IMG/VR virus record: IMGVR_UViG_3300029908_000004
Coordinates: 43,458-107,457 of that record
Reading direction: 5' to 3' (one strand)
DNA: 64,000 nucleotides
DNA from: a virus
The translations under genes were made by a program, and so were the position numbers. Shown here piece by piece: positions 3,148 through 48,748 of the stretch. Within the stretch, counting starts at the first letter, position 1; every line of letters begins with the position of its first letter. Under the pieces are notes generated by a model. That model was not told where the DNA came from and searched no databases. It was given only the letters and a program-made list of their open reading frames with translations.

Positions 3148-3232
3148 TGGAGCGAGAGACGGGATTTGAACCCGCATGTCTTTCAACGGTAGCTTGGAAG
3201 GCTACTGACCAACCGAGTAGGTCATCTCCCGC
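3148..3232 (-). tRNA. tRNA-Gly (anticodon UCC) with atypical 13-nt variable arm, CCA encoded
   Basis: Acceptor GCGGGAG/CTCTCGC with U73, as in bacterial tRNA-Gly. D-arm GACC-TACTCGGTT-GGTC. Anticodon arm GTAGC-CTTCCAA-GCTAC. Variable region CGTTGAAAGACAT can form a small stem (GTT-GAAA-GAC). T-arm GCGGG-TTCAAAT-CCCGT. Confidence 0.7.
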
Positions 3233-3502: not shown

Positions 3503-4089
3503 TTGATTTTCCTTTTCCCGTAGTTACGGGAGTCAAGTGTGTAATTCCCAAAAATAAGATGGTGGGACCACGAGCGCGAACACAGCTCAAGCTGTATCCC
3601 ACCATCAATAAAGCTATTCAGTTGTCAAATATCTATAATAGACTGCCTAGGCAACCTATTGGTAAGCGTTAAGATTTATCATAATTCACTAGATGATCAA
3701 GCTCGCCTAAATCTAGTTCGTCTATATCTTCGGACTCATAGCCCTGTTCTTTGGCTAAAGCTAACATTGAGTATACTTGTTCATCCGAGTATTCCCAATG
3801 TCCCTTCCCTCTTATCTTGTGGTAAATTCCAAATCCCATTTGCCTACCTAAACTAAAAGGGAGAATGATTAACATTCTCCCTCTGTGATACAGAAACTTG
3901 TATGCTTAAGCTACAAGATTTTACCAAGAGGGTTCGTAGTGTTAATATGGGTGAATGAACTACCCGAATACACGAGTCCTGTGCGCCCCGTAAAGGGTGT
4001 TTCACTGGATAATACGAATTGATATCTTGGTTTCATTTTTGCTTAACTCTGATTAGTATAGCACTTCTTAGTACAAAGTCCAGAACTAT

Positions 4090-7826: not shown

Positions 7827-7905
7827 TGGTGGATCGTATGAGAATCGAACTCATCTGAAATCTTCTTTGCAAAAGAAGTGACCACCCCGTGCAGTCCCAC
7901 AACCC
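7827..7905 (-). tRNA. tRNA-Ala (anticodon UGC), CCA encoded
   Basis: Acceptor GGGTTGT/ACGATCC including the G3:U70 Ala identity pair. Anticodon arm CTTCT-TTTGCAA-AGAAG. T-arm ATGAG-TTCGATT-CTCAT. Confidence 0.75.
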
Positions 7906-9333: not shown

Positions 9334-10092
9334 TTATGCTAATGGAACAAGGATATAATCCATCAGCTTCTTGCCAATCTTTGAGCTTGATACGTCAATG
9401 TCCTGCTCATTGGCGCGGGCTCTTGCCTTCTTGACGAATCTTGACAGGTTTTCAACCCTCTCCAGAAGTGAAGCTTTCATAACTGGAGTCAACATTGAGG
9501 ACCATTCCTGAGTTCTCAATAGACCTGTTGCAATGGTTTCTTCCAGAATTTGACACTGTGCTGGATGTTTGTCTGTAGCCGGGTACAGAACTAGTGGTTT
9601 CTTTACAAGTGTTTTGCGCTCTGATTCCACGTCTCTCGCTTGATAGATTCCTACTGAGCGGTTATCGTCTTGCTTGAACCCTTTTGTTGGATCAAGTGTT
9701 GGAATAGCTGTCAGAAGAACCTGAACTTCCTTCAACCTCTTTTCCAACTGCAATAGACTTGTGGCGGGGACATCCTTCAGGATTGTGTTTCCGTCATCGT
9801 CTACCACATCTGCTCTTGCTTGAGTATTTGCTACATCAACCTGATGTGACAGGTCAATACTCTTGATCTGGAATGCCGACCACCACAACAGTTCATCTTT
9901 CACTGTTGTCTGAATCTCTGACACTTCCTCGATCTTGACTGGTGCACCTTCTGTATAAGCAGAGTAGGTCTTACGAATCTCACTGAAATGAGATCTTTTC
10001 TTCTCGAAGGTGGCCTCTAATTCAGTCCGTGTTTTTGCGGCTTGATTTTCCAAATTCTTCTCAACCGCTAGTAACTCATGTAGCTTTGGCAT
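9334..10092 (-). CDS. hypothetical protein (252 aa)
   Basis: Intact ORF with a GAGG SD; no motif recognised. Confidence 0.55.
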   Translation of the reverse strand: MPKLHELLAVEKNLENQAAKTRTELEATFEKKRSHFSEIRKTYSAYTEGAPVKIEEVSEIQTTVKDELLWWSAFQIKSIDLSHQVDVANTQARADVVDDDGNTILKDVPATSLLQLEKRLKEVQVLLTAIPTLDPTKGFKQDDNRSVGIYQARDVESERKTLVKKPLVLYPATDKHPAQCQILEETIATGLLRTQEWSSMLTPVMKASLLERVENLSRFVKKARARANEQDIDVSSSKIGKKLMDYILVPLA

Positions 10093-10778: not shown

Positions 10779-11438
10779 TTACATTGATACGTTTATTGCT
10801 ATTGCTACACCAGCATGTCTACTATCATATAGATAATACCCACCACCTTCATAAACAATATAGCAATCATCTGTATCATACCAGTTATCGCCCCAGTCCC
10901 CGGGATAAGGGTCAGCTAGTACAAACCAAAAACCGTTATATTGGAAGCTTGGGAACCCATTAACCAATCTATATGGGTAGCTGCCAATTCTGAATGAGTG
11001 TTCTCTTCCGAATGACGTTCTAAACCTATCATCTGGAATATGATACCCGTTATACCCGCCACGAGCTGCCCAAGTCTTATGTTCACCAGCCCAATTACCT
11101 GACTTGTGAGCTTGCCAATCACTTCTTTGTTCTTTTGGTCTCTGTTCTTGTTTAGGCTGTTGAGCTTGCTTCGGAGCATGTTGTTGTTTAGGCTGTTGAT
11201 CTCTTTGTTCTACTCGTTGAGCGCTCGGCTTCGACATCTGAGAAGGCTGGCTGCGTGGATGTGATTGAGGACGCTGTTGGTCCATATTATGTTGTGGTTT
11301 CGCACTCTGTTGTGATTTAACTTGTTCGTGCTGTTGAGCTGGCTTTTCTTGCTTTTCACCAGACTTCTGTGCGTATACTGGGGCTATCCCAATAAGTGCA
11401 CACATCAAGATACCTAAGTATCTACTTTTCATGAACAT
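10779..11438 (-). CDS. secreted Gln/Pro-rich protein with Tyr/Trp/Gly-rich C-terminal domain (219 aa)
   Basis: Signal peptide MFMKSRYLGILMCALIGIAPVYA. Long Q/P/K low-complexity linker. Aromatic-rich C-terminal domain (possible RcnB-like fold, uncertain). Confidence 0.6.
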   Translation of the reverse strand: MFMKSRYLGILMCALIGIAPVYAQKSGEKQEKPAQQHEQVKSQQSAKPQHNMDQQRPQSHPRSQPSQMSKPSAQRVEQRDQQPKQQHAPKQAQQPKQEQRPKEQRSDWQAHKSGNWAGEHKTWAARGGYNGYHIPDDRFRTSFGREHSFRIGSYPYRLVNGFPSFQYNGFWFVLADPYPGDWGDNWYDTDDCYIVYEGGGYYLYDSRHAGVAIAINVSM

Positions 11439-11517: not shown

Positions 11518-11916
11518 CTATCCATCTATGTTAGTGTTTTGTTTCTTCTTCCAGTCACGTATTGCAGCCGCTATCGCGTCTTGGGCAAGAACCGAGCAAT
11601 GAATCTTGACCGGAGGCAGTGACAGCTCTTTCACTATGTCGGTGTTCTTGATCTGCAGAGCCTCGTCCACCGTCTTGCCTTTTACCCACTCGGTCGCCAG
11701 CGATGACGATGCGATCGCCGAGCCGCAGCCGAACGTCTTGAACTTCGCGTCCTCGATGATCCTGGTCTGCGGGTTTACCCGGATTTGCAGCTTCATGACG
11801 TCGCCGCATTCCGGAGCGCCGACCAGCCCGGTGCCAACCTCATCTGCATTCTTGTCCATGGTGCCGACGTTGCGCGGATTGGTGTAGTGATCCAGTACCT
11901 TATCGCTGTAAGCCAT
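11518..11916 (-). CDS. iscU: Fe-S cluster assembly scaffold protein IscU
   Basis: Near-complete match to the IscU pattern (MAYSDKVLDHYTNPRNVG...GAPECGDVMKLQI...FKTFGCGSAIASSSLATEWVKGKTVDEA...LPPVKIHCSVLA). GAGGAG SD. Local GC content much higher than surroundings. Confidence 0.9.
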   Translation of the reverse strand: MAYSDKVLDHYTNPRNVGTMDKNADEVGTGLVGAPECGDVMKLQIRVNPQTRIIEDAKFKTFGCGSAIASSSLATEWVKGKTVDEALQIKNTDIVKELSLPPVKIHCSVLAQDAIAAAIRDWKKKQNTNIDG

Positions 11917-12610
11917 CCATCTCCTCTACTTGTTGCAAAACACTTCTTACCTTGTTTATATCTAAGCTACTATCATCTTCAGTTCTAACTCTACGCTGCA
12001 TGTCGATCCAATATGGAGCACGGCAAACGTCATTAATTCTTGAGATCTCTTCCTTCACGTTATCTGGTCCTAATCCACCAGCAAACCCTATCGGGAATGC
12101 AAACGTTGGTGACGGCCATTTGTCTGGGATGATACCCCTTCCACCGGATTTGTCAAATAATCCTTGAGCTCTGAATCCACAAGATTTCAGTGCATAAGGT
12201 AGTAGGTTATTTACCCCGTCCAACTGAAAGATAAACTTTTTCTGACTAAGCTCCTTAAGTCTGTTTACCATACTAAATGTGGAACTGTGTGTTTCGCTGT
12301 GAGTGTTAATCTGAATTCTATCGCTTATATTAACACAAGCAGGTAGAGCTGTCCAGTCTAACTCACCAATCAGTAATTCTTTAACCCATGCACCACAGAT
12401 ATGTGTAGCTACCTGAAGTTCATTTATCTCAGCAGCTTTGGAGAATTGTGATATCCAATGATTGAATGGAAATCTAGGCTCACCGAAGTGGTCTCTAGAT
12501 ACTAAGATCCCCCATTCTACGAATGGGAACTCTTTACTAAGCTCAACCAGATCGTTGATATTGGTAGCATCATCAGCTCCAGTGATTGTTACTGTGTGTG
12601 GATAAAACAT
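11900..12610 (-). CDS. TIM-barrel protein, phosphoribosylanthranilate isomerase (TrpF)-like
   Basis: Motif series FQLDG, GGRGIIPDKWPS and FAGGLGPDNVKEEI parallel the TrpF QLHG, GG.G..FDW and LAGGL.PENV motifs. Start trimmed to the Met with an AAGGAG SD so as not to overlap tRNA-Trp. Function assignment tentative. Confidence 0.45.
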   Translation of the reverse strand: MFYPHTVTITGADDATNINDLVELSKEFPFVEWGILVSRDHFGEPRFPFNHWISQFSKAAEINELQVATHICGAWVKELLIGELDWTALPACVNISDRIQINTHSETHSSTFSMVNRLKELSQKKFIFQLDGVNNLLPYALKSCGFRAQGLFDKSGGRGIIPDKWPSPTFAFPIGFAGGLGPDNVKEEISRINDVCRAPYWIDMQRRVRTEDDSSLDINKVRSVLQQVEEMDGLQR

Positions 12611-12709
12611 AAACTCCTTTGTTTGGCATGGGCACGAGGGCGGAGATAGAACTAAGTTTTGGCACCAGATGGAAGAATCGGACTCCTGAGTCCTGATACT
12701 TAAATTCTT

Positions 12710-12783
12710 TGGCACAAGCACCAGGATTTGAACCCGTACGAACTGTTTTGGAGACAGTCATGCTACCGTTACATCATGCTTAT
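12710..12783 (-). tRNA. tRNA-Trp (anticodon CCA), CCA encoded
   Basis: Acceptor ATAAGCA/TGCTTGT, D-arm ATGT-AACGGTA-GCAT, anticodon arm ACTGT-CTCCAAA-ACAGT, T-arm ACGGG-TTCAAAT-CCTGG, discriminator G. Confidence 0.8.
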
Positions 12784-13529: not shown

Positions 13530-15230
13530 TTACTCCGCTTCTGCTTCTTCAGTTTCCAATACTTCCGTTTTCCCTGAAACGAATTGGGCAATCAACGAAG
13601 GCACATTGGTATCGAATCCAACCACGTCCAACGAACGTACATCGTTTGGATCTGCGATCGAGAATCCAGTTGCTGTCATCCCGATGACAATCTGATGAGC
13701 GTTACGTCCAGAACTCTGACGATAGCTCTCCAAAGCGCTAAATACGTGTTTAGGTCCTGCCCAAGTCTCGTTGTCAGTGATGTTGACAAACACATCGACT
13801 GGCATCTTCTTTTCTTGTGCATCCTTATATGGAAGTGAACAATCTGTTCCTCCCCACCCTGTGCGTAGTGCCTTGGATATTGCTGCGTCTAGCTTCATGG
13901 ATTTAACCAATCCAACATCAATCATCTTGGTGTTGTAGGAAGCAACGTGATGCCATGGCTCATTATGCATGATTACCATAGCCATTGCTACTGCACCCAT
14001 GATTGGTGACATGTTTGGACAACCAACAAGATTTCCCCATCCCATTGAGCCGGAACAATCCAAGCCAATGTAATAGTTCAAATTGGTGGTTTCAGCATTC
14101 TTAAACGTCTTATAGAACGCTGCGTCCATAGCATCCAAAACTGGTTTCACCACTGTCCAAGTCAACGAGCCACGAATGCCATGACCAGTTTGATAGGTTA
14201 ACATAGCATTCAGAACAGTTAGTGGGTGAACACGACTACGTTGCAGATATTCCTGATCCGACAGACGTGTTACTACTAGCTTTGACGCCTCTGATAGAGG
14301 AGCTAACAGCTTGATGCTACTCATCTTACCAAGGTTCCTGATCATTGCGTTCATGGGCATTTTCTGAAGCAATGCCTCCCAAACTGCAACGTGGTTCAAT
14401 GCCTCTGTAGGGATCATTTCGCGAGTGAGGTTGTACTTCTGAATCGCTGAAATGATTACCTTTGGGTCTTTTTCATTCTTCATTGCCTCGAACTGCTTAA
14501 TCAGTTCTGGCAAGTCCTTCTCTAAATCGGTTGCTCCGTGCAGACCTTTGGTAGCCCAATCAAACAAGGCTTTCTGCCCATTCGACAACGTAGCATGGGT
14601 ACCTGCATGGGTGGCACGAAGGATGTCGCGATGGCTCCATCCTTGTGTTCCATCCACACGCCGTGATTGGTATTTCACCATCTGATAAGCCAGTTTCTGC
14701 TCATCTTTCTGTGTGTACCAATCTGCTACGCCGTTGCGTAGTGACCTATTCCAACGCATCTTTGCGGCACCTTCGGCCTGTTTTGACCGCATGCCTTTCA
14801 GATATTCCATTAGTTGGAACAAATGCGTTCCGATACGTGCTACGTCTGGCAGTTTATCCAAGGCGTAACCACGAGTGGATTTGTCACCGAATGCTATACA
14901 CTGTGCCAACGCGAACAGGGCATAGTCATTCTTTGGAGCCCGGCCAGATACAGAGATATCGACAATCGTTTTTACTGTCTTCTCTCCATCTGCCGAAATA
15001 CAGCGTTCAACGCACTTTGCGTTGTCACGCGTCAACTTGTCGGCACCAACATAATAAGTGCCACCTTCGCTTCCAAGAATTATAAATCTCTGGAGTCGGT
15101 CCCAGTCACTCAGTTCAAAAACATAACCTCCAGCGTTATTCTGAACTTGATTCTTTTCTGGGAATGGTTCACTTTGAGGAATTGTTGGCTTCATCGCCCC
15201 ATACACATTTGTTAGGTTGGGTTTCTTCAT
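13530..15230 (-). CDS. rsr: Ro60/Rsr ortholog (TROVE domain + vWA domain with MIDAS)
   Basis: N-terminal TROVE-like segment (YVFELSDWDRLQRFIILGSEGGTYYVGADKL). C-terminal vWA with MIDAS DxSxS (YYIGLDCSGSM). Length 566 aa typical of bacterial/phage Rsr. Confidence 0.8.
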   Translation of the reverse strand: MKKPNLTNVYGAMKPTIPQSEPFPEKNQVQNNAGGYVFELSDWDRLQRFIILGSEGGTYYVGADKLTRDNAKCVERCISADGEKTVKTIVDISVSGRAPKNDYALFALAQCIAFGDKSTRGYALDKLPDVARIGTHLFQLMEYLKGMRSKQAEGAAKMRWNRSLRNGVADWYTQKDEQKLAYQMVKYQSRRVDGTQGWSHRDILRATHAGTHATLSNGQKALFDWATKGLHGATDLEKDLPELIKQFEAMKNEKDPKVIISAIQKYNLTREMIPTEALNHVAVWEALLQKMPMNAMIRNLGKMSSIKLLAPLSEASKLVVTRLSDQEYLQRSRVHPLTVLNAMLTYQTGHGIRGSLTWTVVKPVLDAMDAAFYKTFKNAETTNLNYYIGLDCSGSMGWGNLVGCPNMSPIMGAVAMAMVIMHNEPWHHVASYNTKMIDVGLVKSMKLDAAISKALRTGWGGTDCSLPYKDAQEKKMPVDVFVNITDNETWAGPKHVFSALESYRQSSGRNAHQIVIGMTATGFSIADPNDVRSLDVVGFDTNVPSLIAQFVSGKTEVLETEEAEAE

Positions 15231-20138: not shown

Positions 20139-20369
20139 TTACTTCTTCTTCTTCTTTTCTTCCAATGCAACTTCCCTGATACGCAACTCATTGGGTTTGG
20201 TCCCAACATCAGTGATGTGGTCGCCAAGGTGCTTACGCAAGCCACTTCCCCTGCGCTTGGAATGAACCTGACCAGACGGATCAATCTTGCCACGATATTT
20301 CTTGTGGATCCCGTCAACTTTTGCTTCGTTTCTTTCCTGCTTCGGGTTGAACAACGTCAAGTCGGACAT
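20139..20369 (-). CDS. small basic protein (76 aa)
   Basis: Lys/Arg-rich with C-terminal KKKKK. Confidence 0.45.
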   Translation of the reverse strand: MSDLTLFNPKQERNEAKVDGIHKKYRGKIDPSGQVHSKRRGSGLRKHLGDHITDVGTKPNELRIREVALEEKKKKK

Positions 20370-20499
20370 AATTTCCCTTCTGTTGTTTAAAGTTTGTTGT
20401 AAAGGTTGTTTAAGGTTGTTATTTCTTCTTGAGCTGTGTGAGGCATCCCAATAAGATCTCTTAGTTCTCTTTCTTGTTTACATATTGGACAAGGTTGCC

Positions 20500-20574
20500 C
20501 CATAACGTAGCCATTTATACATAGGCTACAATTGTGGTAGGATTCGAACTCAGAGCCCATAGACACCTCGTATT
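20500..20574 (-). other. tRNA-like fragment (T-loop-like GAGTTCGAATC, 4-bp hairpin, D-like hairpin)
   Basis: Minus: ...CTGAG-TTCGAAT-C, CTAC-CACAATT-GTAG, TAGCC-TATGTATAAAT-GGCTA. T-stem does not pair canonically, so not a functional tRNA. Confidence 0.3.
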
Positions 20575-20651
20575 TGGTAGCTCCTCCTAGGGTCGAACTA
20601 GGCTATGCGGCTTATGAGACCGCCACTTTACCTACCATAAGTTAAAGAGCC
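20575..20651 (-). tRNA. tRNA with CAU anticodon (Met or Ile2/lysidine), CCA encoded
   Basis: Acceptor GGCTCTT/AGGAGCT, D-arm ACTT-ATGGTAGGTA-AAGT, anticodon arm GCGGT-CTCATAA-GCCGC, T-arm CCTAG-TTCGACC-CTAGG, discriminator A. Confidence 0.8.
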
Positions 20652-20887
20652 ACGCTTTCACTTATTTCTGCTACTGGGGTAGTCGTAATAAGTCTAATAT
20701 CAGTTCCTTCTGTAAGAGGAGGCCCCAAGATTTCTACTGGTTCGCCTATCTTAACATTCGAATGTGAGGTCATAACCCCGTCAGTAGTTCGTATGTTATA
20801 TTTAGTATCGCCACCTCTTATCCAAGTTCCGACCTCTTCATTTAATGTGTATTCCGCTCCAGATTCAGTCTTGAATTTGATAATCAT
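20642..20887 (-). CDS. hypothetical protein (81 aa)
   Basis: Intact ORF; stop overlaps tRNA 5' end by 10 nt. Confidence 0.45.
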   Translation of the reverse strand: MIIKFKTESGAEYTLNEEVGTWIRGGDTKYNIRTTDGVMTSHSNVKIGEPVEILGPPLTEGTDIRLITTTPVAEISESVAL

Positions 20888-20895
20888 AGTTTCCT

Positions 20896-21384
20896 TTAAG
20901 CGCGTAAACTTGCTTCCAAGAAATAGAGGAACTTTTCTAATCCTCTTACTAACCCAATATATACGTCTTGGGTTATTAGATCCCCATTCTCACTGGAGAC
21001 TTTCATACCTTTCCTCATTGCATTGGAAATGTCACTGATATAATCTGACATCTTTTCTATGTGGGTTCTACAATTGTCATCATAGATACCAGCGTAAGTA
21101 AAACCTTGACTATTGTTTGTAACCATCCAAGGTTTACCTTCTGGTACACCACCTAGAGCTGTTATTCGCTCGGCGATAGTATCGCTAGCATCTGCCATAT
21201 AATCATAGATTTGATCAAATAGTAGATGTGTAGGATGAAATCCATCCCCTTTCACATTCCAGTGTGCAAATTTTATATCCATTTGTGCCAGCATGGTATT
21301 AGCAAGATTCACGTTTAGATTGTCGACGATTACCTTGATCTTATCTTCTGGCACGTCAATGCGCGTCGTATACAATTCACTCAT
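20896..21384 (-). CDS. dps: Dps-family ferritin-like DNA-binding protein
   Basis: Dps signature: LNVNLANTMLAQMDIKFAHWNVKGDGFHPTHLLFDQIYD...TIAERITALGGVPEG... C-terminal WFLEA-like helix (KFLYFLEASL). Confidence 0.8.
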   Translation of the reverse strand: MSELYTTRIDVPEDKIKVIVDNLNVNLANTMLAQMDIKFAHWNVKGDGFHPTHLLFDQIYDYMADASDTIAERITALGGVPEGKPWMVTNNSQGFTYAGIYDDNCRTHIEKMSDYISDISNAMRKGMKVSSENGDLITQDVYIGLVRGLEKFLYFLEASLRA

Positions 21385-21396
21385 CTTACTTTACCT

Positions 21397-21810
21397 TTAT
21401 TCCTTAAGTGGATATATTTGATGTGCTTCTGTAGTTCCTTTTATCAACATTCTTCCTAGATGCTCAGAACAACTCTCTGTAATCTTACGCCCCGTTGAAT
21501 CAAGAACTTCGTATTCAGCTAACTGGTTACAAGGCAGTTGATCTGAATCAGTCCAGCGGCATAAGACCTGAGAGGAATTAGGGTAGCATCCACTTCCGTC
21601 ATTCTGTTTACAGAGTAGTTCGTATAACCCTCTACAATTACGTAGTATCCCTGTATGAAAGTCTTCTCTTCCACAAGAGCTACATACTAGCTTTGTACGA
21701 TAAGACGGGACAATAACCTGCTCGATTACCTGTCCTTCTGGCTCTGTTTCTTTTATCTTCTGTTCTACTTCCTGAGGAAGTACTTCTTCGTTCTCCATCT
21801 TTCTCCACAT
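21397..21810 (-). CDS. Cys-rich protein (137 aa)
   Basis: Multiple CxxC/Cx(n)C (CSSCGR...C..C...C...C). Confidence 0.5.
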   Translation of the reverse strand: MWRKMENEEVLPQEVEQKIKETEPEGQVIEQVIVPSYRTKLVCSSCGREDFHTGILRNCRGLYELLCKQNDGSGCYPNSSQVLCRWTDSDQLPCNQLAEYEVLDSTGRKITESCSEHLGRMLIKGTTEAHQIYPLKE

Positions 21811-21835
21811 CTATTGATATTGTTGGAATGTAAAT

Positions 21836-21910
21836 TGGTCGGCTCGGCTGGTGTCGAACCAGCGACCTAACCATTATGAGCGGTTGGCTCTACCGTTGAG
21901 CTACGAGCCG
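21836..21910 (-). tRNA. second CAU-anticodon tRNA (elongator Met or Ile2), CCA encoded
   Basis: Acceptor CGGCTCG/CGAGCCG (1-72 paired, so not an initiator), D-arm GCTC-AACGGTA-GAGC, anticodon arm AACCG-CTCATAA-TGGTT, T-arm GCTGG-TTCGACA-CCAGC. Confidence 0.85.
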
Positions 21911-21961
21911 TTTCCTATTTACATTATCACTTTAAATCACTAAGCTTCACGAGATCAGTAT

Positions 21962-22222
21962 TTACTTGAAATAAATAGCTCTATTTTCAGGTTGAATTTC
22001 TTCTTCTGGAATATCTAAACAATATCCTAATTCTTCTAGAGAATTACTTATGTCCAGCAGACGCTTTTTGTTATTTCCTACTCTTCCTCCTCCTCCAATT
22101 CTTCGGAGAATACCAGCTAAAACTTCAGCTTCTGCTGATGTTAAAAAAAGAGTAACACCTACTACTCTTTTTTCATATGTAGTTACTGGAACTTGTTCAA
22201 TCATTCTTTCTGCTTTTGCCAC
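21962..22222 (-). CDS. hypothetical protein (86 aa)
   Basis: Intact ORF. Confidence 0.45.
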   Translation of the reverse strand: MAKAERMIEQVPVTTYEKRVVGVTLFLTSAEAEVLAGILRRIGGGGRVGNNKKRLLDISNSLEELGYCLDIPEEEIQPENRAIYFK

Positions 22223-22234
22223 TTCTTATCTCCT

Positions 22235-22903
22235 CTAAATACCAACCATTTTCTGGACTTCTTCAGGAAGCATAGCAAGCCGCTCCTTGTTGATGGCTTC
22301 GTAGTCATACCCATCTTTGGTATCTGCCCAATGCAGAAGCCAGATAAAAGGCTGTTCCAACCAAGGATTGAGCAAAGTTCCGTGATTCCGTAGCTCTCGG
22401 ATGTGGAATCGTAATGCTTCTCGCCCATCGAAATCACCCGAGAAATTGAGCTTATCAATTGGGTAACTTGAGCACTTAAGATCACATCGAGCTTTGCTCA
22501 TAGCATCCACATCTTCACAGTACAGATTGAACAACAATGTTGAGCTATTGATGCCCACGCCATAAGTGTCAAACCGAAGGAGCATGCCATCTGGGTGGTA
22601 GTACACAAAAAACTTATCACCATCGTGAATAGAGCCACACTGTTCTGTTGATGGGATAGCTAGTTCCATCACCTTCTTGAACCCCTCCTCTTCAACAATC
22701 CGCTGGTAACGGTCCAGCTTATTGGAGAAAGTAGTATCATCAAGAGCTGTGAGCTCTTTTTCTAGCAAAGTGCTCTTTTTGCAGTACAAGAGGGAACCTA
22801 TTGCTCTAGCCTTCCCATCTGTCTTGTAGTCACCGCCGGTAATCTTCTCAGCAGCGCCAAGGGCATCGAATTCAAGTAATGCCTTCAAATCTTTGTCTTC
22901 CAT
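22235..22903 (-). CDS. hypothetical protein (222 aa)
   Basis: Intact ORF with coherent composition. Confidence 0.55.
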   Translation of the reverse strand: MEDKDLKALLEFDALGAAEKITGGDYKTDGKARAIGSLLYCKKSTLLEKELTALDDTTFSNKLDRYQRIVEEEGFKKVMELAIPSTEQCGSIHDGDKFFVYYHPDGMLLRFDTYGVGINSSTLLFNLYCEDVDAMSKARCDLKCSSYPIDKLNFSGDFDGREALRFHIRELRNHGTLLNPWLEQPFIWLLHWADTKDGYDYEAINKERLAMLPEEVQKMVGI

Positions 22904-23193
22904 GATAAGCCTCTTCCTCTAGCGCATAATCAGAATGATTATGATCCAAAACATCAGAGAAATTCCTGATGCTATGATTAAACCAGCAATTGAATTGCTA
23001 ATCCTTGGATAACTCATTTCAGTTTATTCCTAAACTCTTTTTCAAGCTCCAGAAGGTACGAAGCAGCATGTTCTCCAGTAAAGCCTTGATCCAGTAAGAA
23101 GTCCATAGCTGCAAGATAGCTCAACCATTCAACTCCAAACCAGTATTGAAACCCTGTAGGAGTAGACATTGCTTTGTCCATAAACAAGACCTC

Positions 23194-23439
23194 CTAGTAC
23201 CTGATTTTGATTGTGATCACTTCCCCGGGAAGGAGCAAGCGAGCTCTGAGAGGGCAACTTCCTTCCCACACCTCAGATGGATCTGTAATAGACACTATGT
23301 CTCCACCATAGACTTTGGTGACAATATGCTTTCCACCACGGTAATTTTCAAGTAGGATCGCATACTGCCCTACTAGGAGAGAAGATGCATAAAAGTCTTC
23401 CTTCTTTGGTGCAGGCGTGAGTGTGATTTCATGATACAT
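23194..23439 (-). CDS. hypothetical protein (81 aa)
   Basis: Intact ORF. Confidence 0.45.
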   Translation of the reverse strand: MYHEITLTPAPKKEDFYASSLLVGQYAILLENYRGGKHIVTKVYGGDIVSITDPSEVWEGSCPLRARLLLPGEVITIKIRY

Positions 23440-23489
23440 GATATCTCTCCTATGATAAGGATACTTTCTTTTCGAATGTTTGACGTATT

Positions 23490-23519
23490 TTCAACCGATC
23501 TTCTTCTTTCTAGTATAGT
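23490..23519 (+). promoter_or_regulatory. candidate sigma70-type promoter for plus-strand moron
   Basis: TTCAAC (-35), 18-nt spacer, TATAGT (-10), about 60 nt upstream of the AGGAG SD of the 23580 gene. Confidence 0.3.
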
Positions 23520-23579
23520 TATCCTATACTAAATAGTGATAGGAAGTAAGAAATAACTTCCCCTAGGAGAATTCAAACT

Positions 23580-24311
23580 ATGGCTATTGCCGCAAAAACT
23601 TTCGCTGGTAAGGTGAATCTGGACAGTACTGCAAGTACGCTGAACGTCCCGTTCGTTACTGCCTCTGGTGACGCCGTTGTAGTTTACGTCGCCGTTAAAT
23701 CGGCGAATGTCACAGTTCTAAGTGTTACAGATACCGCTGGAAACGTTTACGTTAAGAAAACATCAGGAACCTCTAAAAACGCTGTTCATGATTATAATAG
23801 CAATATAGCTGGTGACACCGTTGATGACTTAGTATCTTATGATGATGCTATAGACGCAGAAGCATGGGTAACAGTCGCTAGTGCTACAGCAGCTTCCTCG
23901 CTAACTGTAACCCTAGTAAGTGGTTCTACATGTGCTGTAGCAGTTCAGTCGTACACTGGCGCTAATGTCGCTGTCGCTACTGCTTTCCCACAAGCCGCTT
24001 TCGTTTCCTTAACAAAGGGGTCTACCCCTACAAATACTCTAACTGGAATGACTAGTACCAGTTACCTATCTGCTTGCTACGCATCTTGTGTTGGCTTGAA
24101 CCAACTAACCCCCAGAGCAGGAACACTACGTCAAGAAGTAACTGCTTCTAGTGCAGACAAGTCTATCACACTTGTTGTGGTTGATAATATAGTTACTGGT
24201 ACTTCTAGTACTGTTACACTAGCTCCAGCTTCGGAAATAGATTCACCTGATGGAATTTCAGAACCAGTTCCAGAGGGAGTTGCTGTTTGCTGTGTTGAAG
24301 TTCACGTCTAA
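23580..24311 (+). CDS. Ala/Thr/Val/Ser-rich beta-rich protein (243 aa), plus-strand moron
   Basis: AGGAG SD. Composition typical of Ig-like/beta-sandwich surface or decoration domains. Opposite strand to surrounding genes with its own terminator. Confidence 0.65.
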   Translation: MAIAAKTFAGKVNLDSTASTLNVPFVTASGDAVVVYVAVKSANVTVLSVTDTAGNVYVKKTSGTSKNAVHDYNSNIAGDTVDDLVSYDDAIDAEAWVTVASATAASSLTVTLVSGSTCAVAVQSYTGANVAVATAFPQAAFVSLTKGSTPTNTLTGMTSTSYLSACYASCVGLNQLTPRAGTLRQEVTASSADKSITLVVVDNIVTGTSSTVTLAPASEIDSPDGISEPVPEGVAVCCVEVHV

Positions 24312-25674: not shown

Positions 25675-26331
25675 TTACATATTCTTCAGCAAATCTTCTG
25701 CGGCTGCCGTTGTCTCAGGATCTTCAGATGTAGTGACAGCTCCCATGGCACGGTTCAACTTCTCTGTGGCTATATCATTCTGTGCTCGCATGCGCCCTTC
25801 AACATCATCGACAGAGATATCTGCCCCACTGCCTACTAATCTACCCGCGTGCTCAAGAGCAGTTGCTGCATGAGTTTGAGCCTTCGAGGACTGATTTAGT
25901 GCCTCAAGTTCACGAACTTTGCTCAACATCTCTGCATGCTTACTGGTAATATTGGCGACTGAAATGTCCATCTTGTTCGATGTTTCCGTCTCTGAAATCA
26001 ACAAAGCCTGCTTGTTGGTTACTTCATTCTGTAACCGAACAATTTCCTTTGCTTTTTCCAAAGCCTGATCAGGATGCCCGTTGTTTTTCAGCTTCGTTGC
26101 TGTAATTCTGGAGGTCTCGATTTTTGCATTGAGATCGTCGATCTCACGCTTTGTCGTGTGAACTGTAGCTGCTGCTACCGCTGCTTCTCCACGTAGCTGG
26201 TCAAGAGCCTCTTCCAGATCCCTTACATACTGCCGAAGAGCAGATGGACTGTTAAGATCGATCACTTTGTCAAGTAGATCATGGGTCTCACCAAGTCCAA
26301 TCGTTCTGAGCTTGCTAAAAATTCCTGTCAT
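25675..26331 (-). CDS. pspA: PspA/IM30 (phage shock protein A family, ESCRT-III-like)
   Basis: N-terminus MTGIFSKLRTIGLGETHDLLDKVIDLNSPSALRQYVRDLEEALDQLRGEAA parallels the PspA opening MGIFSRF..IVNANINALLEKAEDPQK..R..I.EMED.L. Long coiled-coil, 219 aa. Start trimmed to this Met (purine-rich SD). Confidence 0.8.
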   Translation of the reverse strand: MTGIFSKLRTIGLGETHDLLDKVIDLNSPSALRQYVRDLEEALDQLRGEAAVAAATVHTTKREIDDLNAKIETSRITATKLKNNGHPDQALEKAKEIVRLQNEVTNKQALLISETETSNKMDISVANITSKHAEMLSKVRELEALNQSSKAQTHAATALEHAGRLVGSGADISVDDVEGRMRAQNDIATEKLNRAMGAVTTSEDPETTAAAEDLLKNM

Positions 26332-26347
26332 TGCCTTTCCCTTCTTC

Positions 26348-27688
26348 TTAGAAATCGCTACTACCACCGCCGCCGCTGTCGGAACTGCTGCTACTGTCAA
26401 AGCTGCTACTCCCGCCGCTGTCAAAGCTAGAACTGGAATCAGAACTACCCCAACTGGATGAGCCACCAGACTCGCTTTCACGATCTGGTTCTGGATCTGG
26501 AGCTCTGTACGTTGATTCTTCTCGTCTTGGTTCTTCGCGACGAATCTCTTCCACACGTGGTCGATTGTTTATAGATTCGCCGATGAGAACACCAGTCAAT
26601 AAATCATTGTTGGGAGTTGATGTCGGTGTTGGTTCATAAGTCGGTCTTTGTTCTATGTTATGGTGCTGGTGATGATGCCTAACTTGGTTGTATCCAGTGG
26701 TATCATTTACATCGGCAGTGTCAATGGGGGGTCCTTGTTCAGCCGGCTGTTCCGTTGCCATTGGGCTCTGTACATATTTGTGTGCTGAACGTAGAGACTC
26801 GAACTTATCGATGAGGATTCGATATTCTTTGGTAATGGCTTGATAACCATCTTCTGTCATACTTTGTTTGGGGTCCATCGAGTCTGAGTTCTCCATATTG
26901 GAAAACTCTTCCATATACGTATCAAACATATCTTGAATGGATTTCTCTGGTGGATCACTCTGGAACGCTGATTTGAGGGTAAGAACTAGCGCAATACATT
27001 GATTCTTTGTAACTTGAGCTAACCTCTTCGCTTTTGCTTTGGCATCTCTTATTTCTGCCCAACGGGTGCAAGCGATATACCCTGCGGCAATAATGAAGAT
27101 TAAGAACCCCAATCCAAGACACCATAGTAGTACAGTCCATAAACCTTTATAGTCCGTTGCTTGGACATTGGTTGTGTTCTGGACTGGGTGTAGAGCTTCA
27201 TCTTTGGAAGCCGCTAATCGAAGTGAGAATTGTTCGATACCAGTAGACATGCCAAGTGCATAGTTACCGTCTTTGAATCTTGGGATCATATAGGACGTCA
27301 TGATCCGGTTCCAATTTCCGTCTAGTGCGGAATGCCAAGCGGAACCATACATTATTCCTACTTTATGATTCCCGGCTAACATAAAAACAATGAGTGTACT
27401 TTTACGTCCACCGCTGCCACTTTCCCAAGAGGCACATTGGTTCTCCATCTGTTTTTCTGTGATATCGAGGTTGGTGCTATACCCGACTGTCCTTATTCGG
27501 ACATCAGCGCCTTGTTGAACCAACCTGTTCGCAGCGGTTTCTACTGTTGTAATACCTTTTCCAAACAGATTTGCTTGGTCAATGACAATGTTGTCACACA
27601 ATAGAGATTGAGCCATGACCCAACCTGACGTTGAAAACACCATCATCATAACCAACAACGTATACATTGTCAGCTTTGAACTTTTCAT
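26348..27688 (-). CDS. TPM-domain protein (YgcG-like): signal peptide, TPM domain, TM helix, Gly/Ser-rich C-terminal tail
   Basis: Signal peptide, TPM-like block (VIDQANLFG...VRIRTV), central TM (LWTVLLWCLGLGFLIFIIAAGYIA), C-terminal GGSSSWGSSDSSSSFDSGGSSSFD...GGGGSS tail. Sits 16 nt upstream of pspA. Confidence 0.7.
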   Translation of the reverse strand: MKSSKLTMYTLLVMMMVFSTSGWVMAQSLLCDNIVIDQANLFGKGITTVETAANRLVQQGADVRIRTVGYSTNLDITEKQMENQCASWESGSGGRKSTLIVFMLAGNHKVGIMYGSAWHSALDGNWNRIMTSYMIPRFKDGNYALGMSTGIEQFSLRLAASKDEALHPVQNTTNVQATDYKGLWTVLLWCLGLGFLIFIIAAGYIACTRWAEIRDAKAKAKRLAQVTKNQCIALVLTLKSAFQSDPPEKSIQDMFDTYMEEFSNMENSDSMDPKQSMTEDGYQAITKEYRILIDKFESLRSAHKYVQSPMATEQPAEQGPPIDTADVNDTTGYNQVRHHHQHHNIEQRPTYEPTPTSTPNNDLLTGVLIGESINNRPRVEEIRREEPRREESTYRAPDPEPDRESESGGSSSWGSSDSSSSFDSGGSSSFDSSSSSDSGGGGSSDF

Positions 27689-27740
27689 ACACTCCACCTC
27701 CAAGTGGATCGGGAGGGTTGTTACACCCTCCCTTTACTAG

Positions 27741-29852: not shown

Positions 29853-31364
29853 TTACACGTCTTTTAGGACGGTGAATGAATCCTTTCGTTTCCTTCTATG
29901 ACAATTTGTACACATTATGAACTCTTTTGTATCATTTTTACAATTGTATTCTTCCCTGATAGTGGTTTTTACCATTCCATGAGGATAATTTATCTCATTA
30001 CTGTTTTTATCCTTCATCCTAACCCCAGTAGTGAACATCATAGTTCCTTTACATTTGGGGCACTTTGCTGCTATACGGATAACCTTGGATTGGTCGGAGA
30101 AGAATCCAGTTTTCAGAAGTCTATTGACATGTTTATACCAAACTTCACAGATTGCTTTCTTAATTGAATCTTTACCATAACTAGGGTTCTCTAGTTGATA
30201 GTCAAAAGCACGCTCCAACATTCTTTTATATTCATTACTGGGGGTGAATCCCCACTCGGTGAGATCGTCGCCAGTAACCAATGGTTTGGGGAATCCAAGA
30301 GTCTTAGCAGCAGTTATATACCCTATGGTATTCTCCATATTTATAGAGATGATCTTAGCATTAACTAGAATCCATAGTAATTCTATAGCTCTGTTTATAT
30401 TTGGCTTGTTGGCAAGCTTCCTTCTTTCACATAGTGAAGTAAGCCTATTAGACCTAAGATCAATTACTATTTGCACCATCTCTGAGATTGTATTTCTGTC
30501 TTCGTTAGAGAATTTGAGATATTTTAATACATCCCCAATATTCCAATATATACCAGTTGTATACAAAAGACAACACCATGCTAAGATTGGATCTTTAACT
30601 TGTCCAATCTTGTCGAAATTGACAGTTTGATCTACTATATTAAAAAGGGAATTTGGTTGTTGCTCATAGATTTTGGTGTATAAATTAGTTCTCTGAAGAC
30701 AGAACAAAGCGTCACCGACGTGTTCCCCCGTTATGAGCTTTGTCATTTCGTCTCTAACACGTTCTCGCGAAACCCTAATCATCAAATTTGCATTATTACG
30801 AATTGCTCGTAATGTCTCAAATTCTATCTGAAACCCAAGTTGTGACACGAATCTAACAGCTCTTAACATTCGAAGAGGATCCTCTTGGAAACGAATGTTA
30901 GGGTCACCAATACAACCAATCCTTCGTATTGATATATCATATTTACCACCAACATAATCAATAACTTCCATTGACTCTGGGTTCATCAATATCCCATTCA
31001 TCCTAAAATCTCTACGACCAGCGTCAATACATTCTTGATCAGTAAATATAACACTATCCGGTCTACGAAGGTCTGAATACTCAGTAGAATCACTTCTCAA
31101 TGTAGCTACTTCTATGGAGTGATCTACACCATCTATATCAACAAGGACTTTTACAACTCCGAATTCTACTCCAATTGGAATATTGTGGGGAAATAGATCC
31201 ATTACTTCATTGGGTTTAGCTGAAGTACATATATCAAAGTCTTTCGGTTCCTTGTTCATAAGAAGGTTTCTAACACACCTACCTACAAGGAAGACTTTGA
31301 AGTTATTTTGCTTTAACGTCTTAGCTACTTTCCTAGCAGCTTCTAAACTACTTATCTCTGGCAT
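29853..31364 (-). CDS. cca: CCA-adding tRNA nucleotidyltransferase with C-terminal zinc ribbon
   Basis: Head-domain motifs VFLVGRCVRNLLMNKEPKDFDICTSAKPNEV and RRDFRMNGILMNP (Pol-beta/PolyA_pol family). C-terminal CPKC...CTNCH. Start placed at the ATG with an AGGA SD. Confidence 0.85.
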   Translation of the reverse strand: MPEISSLEAARKVAKTLKQNNFKVFLVGRCVRNLLMNKEPKDFDICTSAKPNEVMDLFPHNIPIGVEFGVVKVLVDIDGVDHSIEVATLRSDSTEYSDLRRPDSVIFTDQECIDAGRRDFRMNGILMNPESMEVIDYVGGKYDISIRRIGCIGDPNIRFQEDPLRMLRAVRFVSQLGFQIEFETLRAIRNNANLMIRVSRERVRDEMTKLITGEHVGDALFCLQRTNLYTKIYEQQPNSLFNIVDQTVNFDKIGQVKDPILAWCCLLYTTGIYWNIGDVLKYLKFSNEDRNTISEMVQIVIDLRSNRLTSLCERRKLANKPNINRAIELLWILVNAKIISINMENTIGYITAAKTLGFPKPLVTGDDLTEWGFTPSNEYKRMLERAFDYQLENPSYGKDSIKKAICEVWYKHVNRLLKTGFFSDQSKVIRIAAKCPKCKGTMMFTTGVRMKDKNSNEINYPHGMVKTTIREEYNCKNDTKEFIMCTNCHRRKRKDSFTVLKDV

Positions 31365-31489
31365 ATATTCCTTGTTCAATCTTATCCCAAGTACTCAGGA
31401 CTAAAAGGGGGTAGTGTAAGTTATAAAGTAGTAAAGTACACTACCCTTCGTATTTGTCTACTTCTGACCACCAAACCATCATGGCTTGT

Positions 31490-32741: not shown

Positions 32742-33269
32742 TTAAAAGTCTTCGTCAACACAACGCACGGGAATGACTCTTACTCCTTCTCTTCTCCACA
32801 TATCAACAACCCGTTTACGATCCTCAATGGCGAACAGAATTTGATCTTTTCCTCTTGGTAATGAGTTAACTAACTCATTCAGAATTTCCTTTTTTACTAC
32901 GTCGCCTGGTCTCTTATCCCCTTCCCAACAGAAGAATATCCAAGAGAAAGGAATGTCATATTTTCTTAACCACTCTACGGACAGATCCCCTGTTGTGAAA
33001 GAAGGGCGGCCAGATATGATGACGATACTACAATCTTGAGAGATTGTCCGTACCCAAGAAGCTATAATGTCCACTGGAAGGTCATTACACGCTTCTATGT
33101 GAAATTGTTTGAAGTTTTTAGGATGAGATTTAACGTAGTGTAGTCTATGACTACAGTCTGACAGTGTTCCGTCTAGATCAACAATCACTACTGGTTTTTC
33201 TCCCCATTCTATCTTGTTCTCCAGTAATAACACTCTGGACTTTTCAACACTGTTACGACATGGTTTCAT
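32742..33269 (-). CDS. HAD-superfamily phosphatase
   Basis: Motif I VVIVDLDGTL, later ISGRP and a C-terminal D-containing motif. Size and motifs fit PNK-phosphatase/nucleotidase-type HAD proteins. Confidence 0.6.
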   Translation of the reverse strand: MKPCRNSVEKSRVLLLENKIEWGEKPVVIVDLDGTLSDCSHRLHYVKSHPKNFKQFHIEACNDLPVDIIASWVRTISQDCSIVIISGRPSFTTGDLSVEWLRKYDIPFSWIFFCWEGDKRPGDVVKKEILNELVNSLPRGKDQILFAIEDRKRVVDMWRREGVRVIPVRCVDEDF

Positions 33270-36538: not shown

Positions 36539-37780
36539 TCATTTTAAGATACCTTTGAAGGACTCAACTGACATTCTGTCCTCGAACCTTGGTCCAAACG
36601 AGATTGTGTTGATAGTCGGTTCCAACAAATTCTTTAGAACAGACAAGTAAGTGCTTAGACTCGGGGGTTGTATAAACAAACCCTTCTCTGAGTCGATTAT
36701 CTTCAGATAGTCTGTCCACCTGTCCAAATGGGACAAAGCTATTTCATCTACGCCTTTACAAATCTTAATGGACTTATTGACAAGCCCAATGTCCAAGTGT
36801 CCCACCCGAAACTCCCCTTGATACTCGCCTTTCTGGTTATGATTTTCTGGCAGTAAACCAGTTAATCTCATATCCTCGGTTGGGAATGGACCCACTCCGT
36901 GACGAGTGGCGTAGGTTCTTATACAGCCAATTCTGACTCTGTTACCAATGAACCCAGAAATGTTGAGCAAATCATCAGCATTCCTGAAAGTTGTGTTGGT
37001 CCATGAGTTATACGGATAGGTCCCATACCACTCATCTAACATTACTCCTTGTGCCCCCTCGAACACAGATGCAGTGGATTTTGATAGCAAATCAGAAAGG
37101 AACTCTTGTGGCTTTACCTGAGCGTTCCATTTGCTATATATCCGACTGTGCCATTCAGACCAGTCTTCATTACTATCTACTATGATGTCGTAGTCCTTTT
37201 TCCACTGGTCCACTGGTATCTTTTCCAATGTCGGAAGCAGCTCTTTCAGCTTGGCGAGGTACACCTTGTGAAGGAAGCTCAATTTGCTACGTGTTACCTC
37301 TTCTGATTCTATGTCTTTAGCAAATAGGACGTTGTTCCCATATTCAATGGAATCACTACGAGTTTGTCCTATTCCTTGTCCACAGCTACCGTGTCTGTTC
37401 TTCCCTCTGGCAATTTCTCTCAACCTTCCAAAAGCTATTTGGAAGGGAGTGACTACCAAGCAATCCCCATCAACAAATGTTCTGTCCCATATATCAGTTA
37501 TCCCAAGGGACATTAGATGAGCTGCTTCTCTCATCATGTAGAATGGATTGACCAATGTAAACTTGGACAAGTAAGTCTTCACATTGGGTTGTAGCATCCC
37601 ACTACCAAACTGTTGGAAGGTATGGCTTCTCGATAATTCAACAACGTTATGTGCAGCTTGTGGCCCACCGTTGTATCGAACTATCAAATCAGCTTTGTGA
37701 GTACGGGTTAGATACTCTACGTGGGCTCCTTTTGCGCAATCGCCCCATAGCATCCCAGCAACGAGATATGCTATACCCAT
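36539..37780 (-). CDS. adenylosuccinate synthetase family protein (PurA/PurZ-like) with divergent nucleotide-binding motifs
   Basis: PurA fold hallmarks (LWGDCAKGAHVE...VRYNGGPQAAHN; GSCGQGIGQT; TYATRHGVGPFPTE). The P-loop GDEGKGK is replaced by GDCAKGA and the guanine-specificity motif TKLD by SHLD. Start at the Met with a GGAGG SD. Confidence 0.85.
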   Translation of the reverse strand: MGIAYLVAGMLWGDCAKGAHVEYLTRTHKADLIVRYNGGPQAAHNVVELSRSHTFQQFGSGMLQPNVKTYLSKFTLVNPFYMMREAAHLMSLGITDIWDRTFVDGDCLVVTPFQIAFGRLREIARGKNRHGSCGQGIGQTRSDSIEYGNNVLFAKDIESEEVTRSKLSFLHKVYLAKLKELLPTLEKIPVDQWKKDYDIIVDSNEDWSEWHSRIYSKWNAQVKPQEFLSDLLSKSTASVFEGAQGVMLDEWYGTYPYNSWTNTTFRNADDLLNISGFIGNRVRIGCIRTYATRHGVGPFPTEDMRLTGLLPENHNQKGEYQGEFRVGHLDIGLVNKSIKICKGVDEIALSHLDRWTDYLKIIDSEKGLFIQPPSLSTYLSVLKNLLEPTINTISFGPRFEDRMSVESFKGILK

Positions 37781-37871
37781 TAGTACCTCCATCTCTATTT
37801 GAGTTTGTGCTGTAATACTTACATGGATGAAGCATTCCTGATTACTTAGTTAAGCACAAGAAGTTGACGTT

Positions 37872-42654: not shown

Positions 42655-42872
42655 GTTGTCACTCCCGGTATTTTCCACAAATCTAGGTTACATTTATACT
42701 CCGGGTAGCGCTTCATCAGAAGAAGAATACTTGGTAATATAATTGCGTAGTTCTCTTTATCTGTACTAATTATAGCTTGAGCCATAGCTGTTAAGAAGTC
42801 TTCAGCGTTATAGGGCTCAGCGTAAAGGATACCGTAGGCCCATATCAAAACGTTTCGGTCCTTCTCAGGCAT

Positions 42873-47888: not shown

Positions 47889-48422
47889 TTACGAACTAAC
47901 CGGTTTTTCTATTAACTCTCTTAGACAAGTTACAAGAAATTTGTCCACAGTCAAAGTTGTACTTGGTAACACAGTTACCACTTTTATACCTAAACCAGTG
48001 GCAATCCGAATGCCTTGTCTTGTCCCACCGTTGCCATCTTCTTGTGGAAATGCACACACAAGACAAGATCCTTCGATAATACCGAAGTTACGAGCATGAA
48101 GCTTAAACGCTCCCTGTGTTAGAAAACTTGGATTCGGATGGTATTGTATAACTGAATCTCTCCAATCCAGATGAACCAACTCATCATACACAATCTTGTG
48201 TGTACAGTCTCTCGGTATAATCCCCGAGTTGTATGAGTACCAAGGCAAATACACTCGTAGATTCTTGGGTGTAGCGTTTAGCATGGCTGCGTGATCAATT
48301 CCCATTGCTGCTCCAGTAGCGATTACATAGTCGAGGAAGGAGAATTTTCTCGCTGCAGCTGCAGCTAATACAAGTTGTCGTTGACTGGGGTTACGAGTGC
48401 CAATAATGGCAATCTTGCTCAT
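47889..48422 (-). CDS. DprA/Smf-like Rossmann-fold protein, paralog 1
   Basis: KIAIIGTRNPSQ...LAAAAA...VIATGAAMGIDHAAM and later GSCLVCAFPQEDGNGGTRQGIRIA parallel the DprA GTR.PS...LA..LA...VSGLA.GID.AAH and SGSLITA motifs. Confidence 0.6.
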   Translation of the reverse strand: MSKIAIIGTRNPSQRQLVLAAAAARKFSFLDYVIATGAAMGIDHAAMLNATPKNLRVYLPWYSYNSGIIPRDCTHKIVYDELVHLDWRDSVIQYHPNPSFLTQGAFKLHARNFGIIEGSCLVCAFPQEDGNGGTRQGIRIATGLGIKVVTVLPSTTLTVDKFLVTCLRELIEKPVSS

Positions 48423-48439
48423 TACTTATCTCCAATGTA

Positions 48440-48748
48440 TCACTTCTTCGGTGTCAAAGTTCCGAGAGAACGTGTGTAGCAGAGAACTTTACCGTCTACT
48501 GCTACACCAACATAGTTTCCATTCTCTCGGAACTGGACGACCTCATGTCCTTCTCTAGCTAACTTCCCCCAGAGGCTTGGCTTGTTTGGATTTTGTTCAA
48601 TTGCAAGGACAGGTTTTCCACCGGTGTCCCTGAAAAACGCGGTACGAAGACCACTAATTGATGTCCTCTTGATAGTTAGTGACTTACCACTCTTCGTTAT
48701 CCCCGTGAACAATGCTCTTGCTATTGCTTTGAACAGAGTTCCATTCAT
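48440..48748 (-). CDS. hypothetical protein (102 aa)
   Basis: Intact ORF between the two DprA-like paralogs. Confidence 0.45.
   Translation of the reverse strand: MNGTLFKAIARALFTGITKSGKSLTIKRTSISGLRTAFFRDTGGKPVLAIEQNPNKPSLWGKLAREGHEVVQFRENGNYVGVAVDGKVLCYTRSLGTLTPKK

Follow-up and report, generated by a model that had tools for sequence, protein, structure and literature searches.

The Dps locus and its genomic setting

The gene examined here lies on the minus strand of a 64,000-nucleotide stretch of viral DNA (hereafter, the window) and was identified from the open reading frame (ORF) listing and its translation. Read on the plus strand, this interval is riddled with stops. The first-pass annotation had quoted two Dps motifs in its product, and both of them, KFAHWNVKGDGFHPTHLLFDQIYDY and TIAERITALGGVPEG, were found in the 162-aa translation. 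The gene and the features considered around it are as follows.

20896..21384, minus: Dps-family mini-ferritin coding sequence, 162 codons, ATG start, TAA stop
21394..21397, minus: weak Shine-Dalgarno-like AAGG, 10-13 nt 5' of the Dps ATG, read from the sequence
21397..21810, minus: upstream neighbour, Cys-rich ORF of 133-137 aa with 11 Cys; no Pfam or family match
20642..20887, minus: downstream neighbour, 81-aa ORF; no family match
21836-21910 and 20575-20651, both minus: two tRNA-Met(CAT) genes
3861-3879, plus: intergenic Fur-box-like palindrome GAGAATGATTAACATTCTC, 3 mismatches to the consensus

The spacing of these elements is tight. The AAGG overlaps the final base of the stop codon of the upstream ORF, which is separated from the Dps gene by 12 nt, and the downstream ORF begins 9 nt past the Dps stop. 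The resulting block of three ORFs is bracketed by the two tRNA-Met genes; given the CAT anticodon, one of them may be an initiator tRNA or the precursor of tRNA-Ile2. The Cys-rich ORF was found in all contigs carrying an identical Dps. As a candidate conserved partner of Dps it was ruled out, as it does not lie beside Dps in the relatives of 65-67% identity. A promoter scan of positions 20300-23600 revealed no sigma-70-like promoter above chance, and a terminator scan around Dps was likewise at chance level. The missing promoter is consistent with co-transcription of Dps within a long same-strand array. A Fur-box search gave the palindrome listed above as its single match, 17 kb from Dps (chance expectation 0.03, with a match in 3 of 100 shuffles), which is uninformative on Dps regulation.

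The window has a GC content of approximately 37-50% and a GC skew that is negative throughout, and nearly all of its ORFs are on the minus strand. Ten dispersed tRNA genes were predicted using ARAGORN, eight of which were confirmed by Rfam; the predicted tRNA-Gly (3148-3232) and tRNA-Ala (7827-7905) were unconfirmed. The Rfam scan of the window returned tRNAs only. Among the roughly 50 window ORFs compared with PHROG and Pfam, no virion gene (capsid, terminase or tail) or iron-dependent enzyme was recognised. Besides a GT2 glycosyltransferase and an HNH endonuclease, the recognisable genes outside the Dps block are listed below; most of the remaining ORFs matched nothing, and such ORFans form the majority.

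9334..10092: DUF7873 gene, common to Rhizobium jumbo phages, Ralstonia phiRSL1, and Klebsiella and Vibrio jumbo phages
11518..11916, minus: IscU Fe-S scaffold gene (NifU_N, E = 7e-55; ligands C37, D39, C64, H106 and C107 intact)
13530-15230, 29853-31379, 32742-33269 and 41032-42678, minus: RNA-repair-like set comprising a Ro60/TROVE protein with vWA, a CCA-adding enzyme, a PNKP-type phosphatase and an ATP-dependent ligase
25675-26556, minus: PspA/IM30-family protein (Pfam, 5e-15)
26348-27703, minus: ORF of approximately 450 aa with a TPM_phosphatase domain by database annotation (locus L001)
36539-37792, minus: adenylosuccinate-synthetase homologue; best PHROG 1211, '2-aminooxy adenylosuccinate synthetase' (PurZ-like)
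47889-48422 and 48684-49277, minus: two DprA-like ORFs, each corresponding to the first part only of the DNA_processg_A profile

Several of these genes merit a comment of their own. The RNA-repair-like genes are scattered among the ten tRNA genes, and no Y-RNA-like partner of the Ro protein was detected at the gathering threshold of Rfam. The adjoining PspA and TPM-domain ORFs look like a phage membrane-stress pair, and the neighbouring DprA-like ORFs may represent a duplicated or split gene. The adenylosuccinate-synthetase homologue (PurA/PurZ-like, PurZ being associated with 2-aminoadenine DNA) was 38% identical to its counterpart in a related contig (L012).

A nucleotide search with the 12 kb around Dps against 50,697 phage records gave no match, and a tblastn search with a 1058-aa window ORF found no phage homologue. 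Therefore, the source of the window has no close cultured relative. The interpretation of the window as an accessory region of an uncultured jumbo phage of at least 215 kb is well supported by its architecture and relatives, not by a virion gene.

Family identity, predicted fold and ferroxidase centre

A profile search had been proposed as a check on the Dps assignment. The protein matched Pfam PF00210 Ferritin over residues 21-160 (67.6 bits versus a gathering cutoff of 24.5; E = 1.4e-18) and the NCBIfam Dps model NF006975 over residues 2-161 (E = 8.6e-32). Because its score of 110.5 bits missed the NF006975 equivalog cutoff of 114, it was filed as a member of the Dps family, not as an equivalog of E. 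coli Dps. PHROG 3636, which is named 'DNA binding protein' and comprises phage Dps-like proteins, aligned with residues 15-161 over positions 4-148 of its 149 (E = 1.2e-27). In a phmmer search of the PDB, 71 sequences were matched at E <= 0.01, and the 60 listed were all either members of the Dps family or fusion constructs derived from Dps, with Brucella 3ge4 (2.8e-20), Agrobacterium tumefaciens 1o9r (3.4e-20) and Salmonella and E. coli Dps (approximately 1e-17) ranking highest.

The predicted structure agreed with these matches. The AlphaFold2 model, computed from an alignment of 119 sequences, had a mean pLDDT of 97.4 and a pTM of 0.91, with helices A (12-42), B (48-75), BC (84-90), C (104-131) and D (135-160). 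The short helix at 84-90 in the B-C loop is a Dps hallmark, and the remainder of the model consists of four long helices. The best 50 Foldseek matches in the PDB were all Dps, two of them being chains of a Dps-bacterioferritin chimera, and the highest TM score, 0.93, was that to 1o9r (162 columns, rmsd of 1.5 A). A 24-mer ferritin or bacterioferritin was considered and ruled out, given that the 60 listed PDB matches and the best 50 folds were Dps or Dps-based and that the ligands are of the inter-subunit Dps type. The claim of a phage-encoded Dps was thus borne out by the Pfam, NCBIfam, PHROG and PDB matches together with the Dps-specific predicted fold, and the 162-aa product is confirmed as a Dps-family mini-ferritin.

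The ferroxidase centre was located through alignments, including the phmmer alignment to 3ak8, in the following segment.

21169..21264, minus: segment encoding the ferroxidase centre
21262-21264 (H41), 21226-21228 (H53), 21214-21216 (D57), 21181-21183 (D68) and 21169-21171 (E72), minus: ligand codons

Residues H41, W42, H53, D57, D68 and E72 correspond, with an offset of +10, to H51, W52, H63, D67, D78 and E82 of E. coli Dps, for which the reference sequence was checked and found to be 100% identical to PDB 1f30. The five ligands and W42 were invariant across the alignment of 119 homologues, and the ligands were also kept in the three aligned cultured-phage Dps-like proteins, at 25-34% identity. 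Loss of the ferroxidase residues combined with an unrelated four-helix bundle would have pointed away from Dps; instead, all five ligands are present and the bundle is that of Dps. Helix D opens with two further conserved acidic residues, D135 and D140, which are equivalent to E. coli D141 and D146; this would place them in the acidic three-fold iron-entry pore known from solved Dps cages.

Relatives, selection and the IscU gene

A search of a large protein database returned 707 matches at E <= 1e-10, of which two showed 65-67% identity and approximately 15 showed 42-50%; below these lay a continuum of bacterial-type Dps at 40% identity or less. Five of the proteins at 42-50% identity are encoded in mutually syntenic phage-like contigs with the order CCA-adding enzyme, T4 RNA ligase 1, NADAR, RlaP, two small ORFs, Dps, lipase/glycosyltransferase and DUF7873; endonuclease VII is present in one of these contigs and adenylosuccinate synthetase in another. 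The genes common to the window and the syntenic contigs were Dps (44-49% identity), DUF7873 (48-49%), a 162-aa ORF (approximately 41%), the PurA-like gene (38%) and the CCA-adding enzyme (28-30%). Based on these values, Dps is among the best-conserved shared genes of this distantly related phage group. In IMG/VR, 16 viral contigs carried Dps relatives, five of them 143-252 kb long. When a conserved neighbour was sought, nothing but Dps was common to the IMG/VR loci, and the flanking ORFs differed even in the relatives of 65-67% identity. The identical Dps protein, with the same neighbours, recurred across independent samples: at least 20 contigs of the JGI, ENA and Logan assemblies carry it, the longest of them recorded at 215 kb.

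In a neighbour-joining tree, the window protein branched with P0002-P0016, P0018, P0039 and P0042 of the database matches and with the IMG/VR loci L014 and L021, with moderate bootstrap support (102/200). Members of this branch carry the signature A33, G48, P51 and Q139, positions that are elsewhere mostly L, D/N, Q/A and A/S. Given the moderate support, the phage-associated group is described as a branch with signature residues, not as a proven monophylum. The branch (42-67% identity) is known so far only from metagenomic contigs, which are phage-like wherever the context is readable. Other viral Dps proteins (L016/L017 and L024-L026) nest among bacterial-type sequences, and the Dps-like genes of cultured phages branch apart. 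This placement of viral Dps on separate tree branches therefore suggests several independent acquisitions. No cellular Dps of more than 40% identity was detected among 185,579 species (one genome each); the best cellular sequences, at 40% or less, came from Terriglobales, Gemmataceae, Pirellulaceae, Acidobacteriota and filamentous cyanobacteria. At these levels of similarity, no recent donor is identifiable.

Pairwise comparisons between branch members gave pN values of 0.20-0.38 against saturated pS values of 0.70-0.87. Owing to the synonymous saturation, only the contrast between pN and pS is usable, and a numerical dN/dS was available for one pair only (0.22). This contrast indicates that the Dps gene is under purifying selection. 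These results bear on the possibility that the phage does not encode the gene at all: it could be the dps of a bacterium, present on a contig of cellular origin or of faulty assembly, or a passenger acquired recently and without a role. The lack of an identified capsid, terminase or tail gene in the 64-kb window would fit such an origin. However, the near-uniform strand, the ten dispersed tRNAs, the ORFan majority and the PHROG families are phage-like; genes of the window recur in IMG/VR viral contigs and in contigs carrying T4 RNA ligase 1 and endonuclease VII, and DUF7873 is common to Rhizobium and Ralstonia jumbo phages. A recent cellular capture is further opposed by the species survey described above and by purifying selection across a deep branch. 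A non-phage origin is thus scarcely credible.

The first-pass annotation had also joined Dps with IscU into a two-gene iron-handling set. The IscU gene is real and intact, and this part of the proposal stands; the linked module does not, because the two genes are separated by approximately 9 kb containing about 20 ORFs and four tRNA genes, and no IscU was found within 10 kb of Dps in the five syntenic relatives or the 16 IMG/VR loci. The ORFs flanking IscU (11900-12721 and 10779-11438) had no matches. IscU was present in just 17 catalogued phage records, and the window IscU was 70-73% identical to those of phage C48C1 (Kyanoviridae; best match, 73%) and 'Acinetobacter phage MD-2021a'. Phage C48C1 was rejected as a relative, as nothing but IscU was common to it and the window in the 40-kb stretch read. 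Records of 'Salmonella phage S.Kent' that matched both Dps and IscU were unannotated fragments of 1.6-1.9 kb, probably host DNA, and were set aside.

A functional connection between the two genes could nevertheless be envisaged, in which iron taken from the host is stored in Dps and passed on to the phage IscU, and this would be compatible with the protective role favoured below. Both genes are intact and occupy the same accessory region of one genome, and viral IscU is an established and accepted auxiliary gene that is often found alongside virally encoded Fe-S enzymes (PMC5332604). Against such a depot stand the distance between the genes, the absence of IscU within 10 kb of Dps in all 5 syntenic relatives and all 16 IMG/VR loci, the fact that the closest phage IscU comes from a phage otherwise sharing nothing with the window in the stretch read, and the failure to recognise any Fe-S or di-iron enzyme among the approximately 50 window ORFs. 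Moreover, we know of no established pathway for iron release from Dps to IscU. An iron depot is thus a minor possibility; Dps and IscU can be viewed as separate iron-related acquisitions co-resident in one genome, between which a functional link is possible but unsupported.

Predicted role and comparison with known Dps systems

The window Dps begins at the equivalent of residue 11 of E. coli Dps, and K5, K8 and K10 are consequently absent. It has neither the Lys-rich N-terminal tail nor a basic C-terminal tail (net charge of -2 over the first 21 aa and 0 over the last 10 aa), and the mobile Lys/Arg-rich tail of the DNA-binding Dps subgroup (E. coli or M. smegmatis type) was not found. The N-terminus was modelled with confidence (pLDDT of 94 for residues 1-10), and the model superposed over its full length on A. 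tumefaciens Dps. The protein has a pI of 4.86, and each subunit carries a net charge of -8; in a sample of ten close clade members, pI values were 4.4-5.0 and no basic tail was present. Tail deletions in E. coli Dps, together with work on A. tumefaciens Dps, predict that a tail-less form neither binds nor condenses DNA. DNA binding in the absence of a Lys tail is known for some Dps proteins, and thus tail loss is no proof of non-binding. Given the lack of a basic tail and the strongly acidic character, chemical protection resembling that of A. tumefaciens Dps, without DNA binding or condensing, is suggested, and the window Dps is most likely a cage that sequesters iron and detoxifies peroxide, not a protein that condenses DNA.

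The contrary view is that the protein compacts or shields phage DNA, or silences the host nucleoid. It derives from the 'DNA binding protein' label on PHROG 3636 and on phage homologues, and E. coli Dps itself binds DNA. However, these labels are inherited family names carried over to the homologues, not test results, and for tail-less phage Dps forms the label is probably wrong. The tail needed for DNA binding and condensation by E. coli Dps is absent, as is a basic C-terminal tail; the charge of -8 per subunit would amount to approximately -96 per presumed dodecamer; and the top structural match, A. tumefaciens Dps, does not bind DNA. A DNA-binding or condensing function is therefore improbable. 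The earlier proposal that a phage Dps could sequester iron or protect DNA during oxidative stress in the infected cell accordingly survives in its core, the phage Dps, whereas protection through direct binding is unlikely in the absence of basic tails and at -8 per subunit. Any DNA protection would come through the removal of Fe(II) and H2O2.

Taken together, the product is a bona fide and probably active Dps of the tail-less, putatively non-DNA-binding type, as judged from its sequence and model. Our preferred interpretation, to which we assign a probability of roughly 0.7, is that a large uncultured phage makes a functional stand-alone Dps mini-ferritin during infection, and that it is chemically protective without binding DNA. 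By homology, twelve subunits would form a hollow, 23-symmetric cage. Fe(II) would bind at di-iron sites between two-fold-related subunits, coordinated by H41, H53 and D57 from one and by D68 and E72 from the other. The predicted activity is oxidation of this iron, preferentially by H2O2, with storage as a ferric core. Both Fenton reactants would thereby be removed from the infected cell, and the replicating phage DNA and iron-dependent enzymes could be protected, which would be the putative benefit to the phage. Early in the lytic infection of Yersinia ruckeri, the host genes with the strongest induction include dps (PMC7354516). Because of this strong early induction, infection appears to create a demand for Dps, which a phage copy could meet.

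A functional divergence of the tail-less acidic branch from host Dps may also be considered. Its members might serve as a dedicated iron reservoir for phage-encoded iron and Fe-S enzymes, or as dominant-negative subunits that co-assemble with host Dps; we regard this as doubtful. If the dominant-negative form were true, it would block the stress-induced condensation of the nucleoid that would arrest phage replication. Phage-borne antioxidant and iron genes reveal host stresses that limit phage replication, and with the window gene, environmental jumbo phages gain a Dps lineage that is deep and maintained by selection. Earlier notices of phage Dps concerned mainly Lactobacillus phages, enterobacterial podophages and gut phages. 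Current understanding is not challenged by the window Dps.

Dps genes have been reported in Lactobacillus plantarum phages (PMC6669764) and in gut 'Gratiaviridae' and 36 other gut phages (PMC8008677), and the antioxidant and iron rationale for phage Dps has already been proposed (PMC8008677, PMC6669764). No experimental characterisation of any phage Dps was found in the searched literature. In our tblastn search, Dps-like genes were detected in 129 phage records, all with less than 60% identity to the window Dps. Most of these records were from Escherichia phages (the one fetched, LAMP, is a Kuravirus), and the others included Streptomyces Gilsonvirus, Lactobacillus and Clostridium phages. Many Kuravirus records label the Dps-like gene 'integrase', which looks like an annotation error. 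Among the structures in BFVD, Dps folds were found in Lactobacillus phages Semele and LP65, Bacillus phage G (gp346), Escherichia phage SU10 and many uncultured Caudovirales.

The BFVD entries raise the possibility that the window Dps is packaged in the capsid with the phage DNA. In entries from uncultured Caudovirales such as A0A6J7XDU5, A0A6J7WPK9 and A0A6J7WIS1, the Dps fold is fused to a 'prohead protease' or to large proteins of 300-760 aa; the prohead-protease fusions, of 290-760 aa, are presumably capsid-targeted. Such fusions suggest capsid-targeted Dps domains that are reminiscent of encapsulin cargo. In contrast, the window Dps is an unfused, stand-alone 162-aa ORF without an extension or targeting peptide, its gene lies among tRNAs and accessory genes outside a structural module, and its match to a PHROG 'internal virion protein' was not significant (E = 0.11). 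Association of the window Dps with the virion is thus very unlikely.

Compared with the Dps-like proteins of tailed phages such as Kuravirus LAMP (gp67) and SU10, Gilsonvirus, Libingvirus BUCT695 and others, the window Dps shares the stand-alone Dps fold, at no more than 34% identity and on separate tree branches. The genes of LAMP and BUCT695 are located among nucleotide-metabolism genes, whereas the window Dps is located among tRNAs and ORFans. In the Escherichia phage LAMP (L031), dCTP deaminase, thioredoxin and thymidylate synthase genes are near the Dps-like gene, and in the Aeromonas phage BUCT695 (L033), the Dps-like gene adjoins that for anaerobic ribonucleotide reductase (NrdD).

Among characterised Dps structures, E. 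coli Dps (1dps, 1f30) has the same fold (TM 0.88) and matches the window Dps at the six residues H51, W52, H63, D67, D78 and E82; the window protein differs from it in overall sequence (30% identity) and in lacking the first ten residues. The best sequence and fold matches were A. tumefaciens Dps 1o9r and Brucella melitensis Dps 3ge4 (E of approximately 3e-20; TM of 0.93 and 0.92), both of which have the same ferroxidase ligands as the window Dps, a short N-terminus and no free basic tail. The structure 1o9r, titled 'a member of the family that protect DNA without binding', is the archetype of that type. The window Dps differs from these two proteins in being only 30-32% identical to them, phage-encoded and more acidic, and in carrying A33, G48, P51 and Q139. 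Phage Dps genes are thus already known, and the window gene adds a distinct branch to them.
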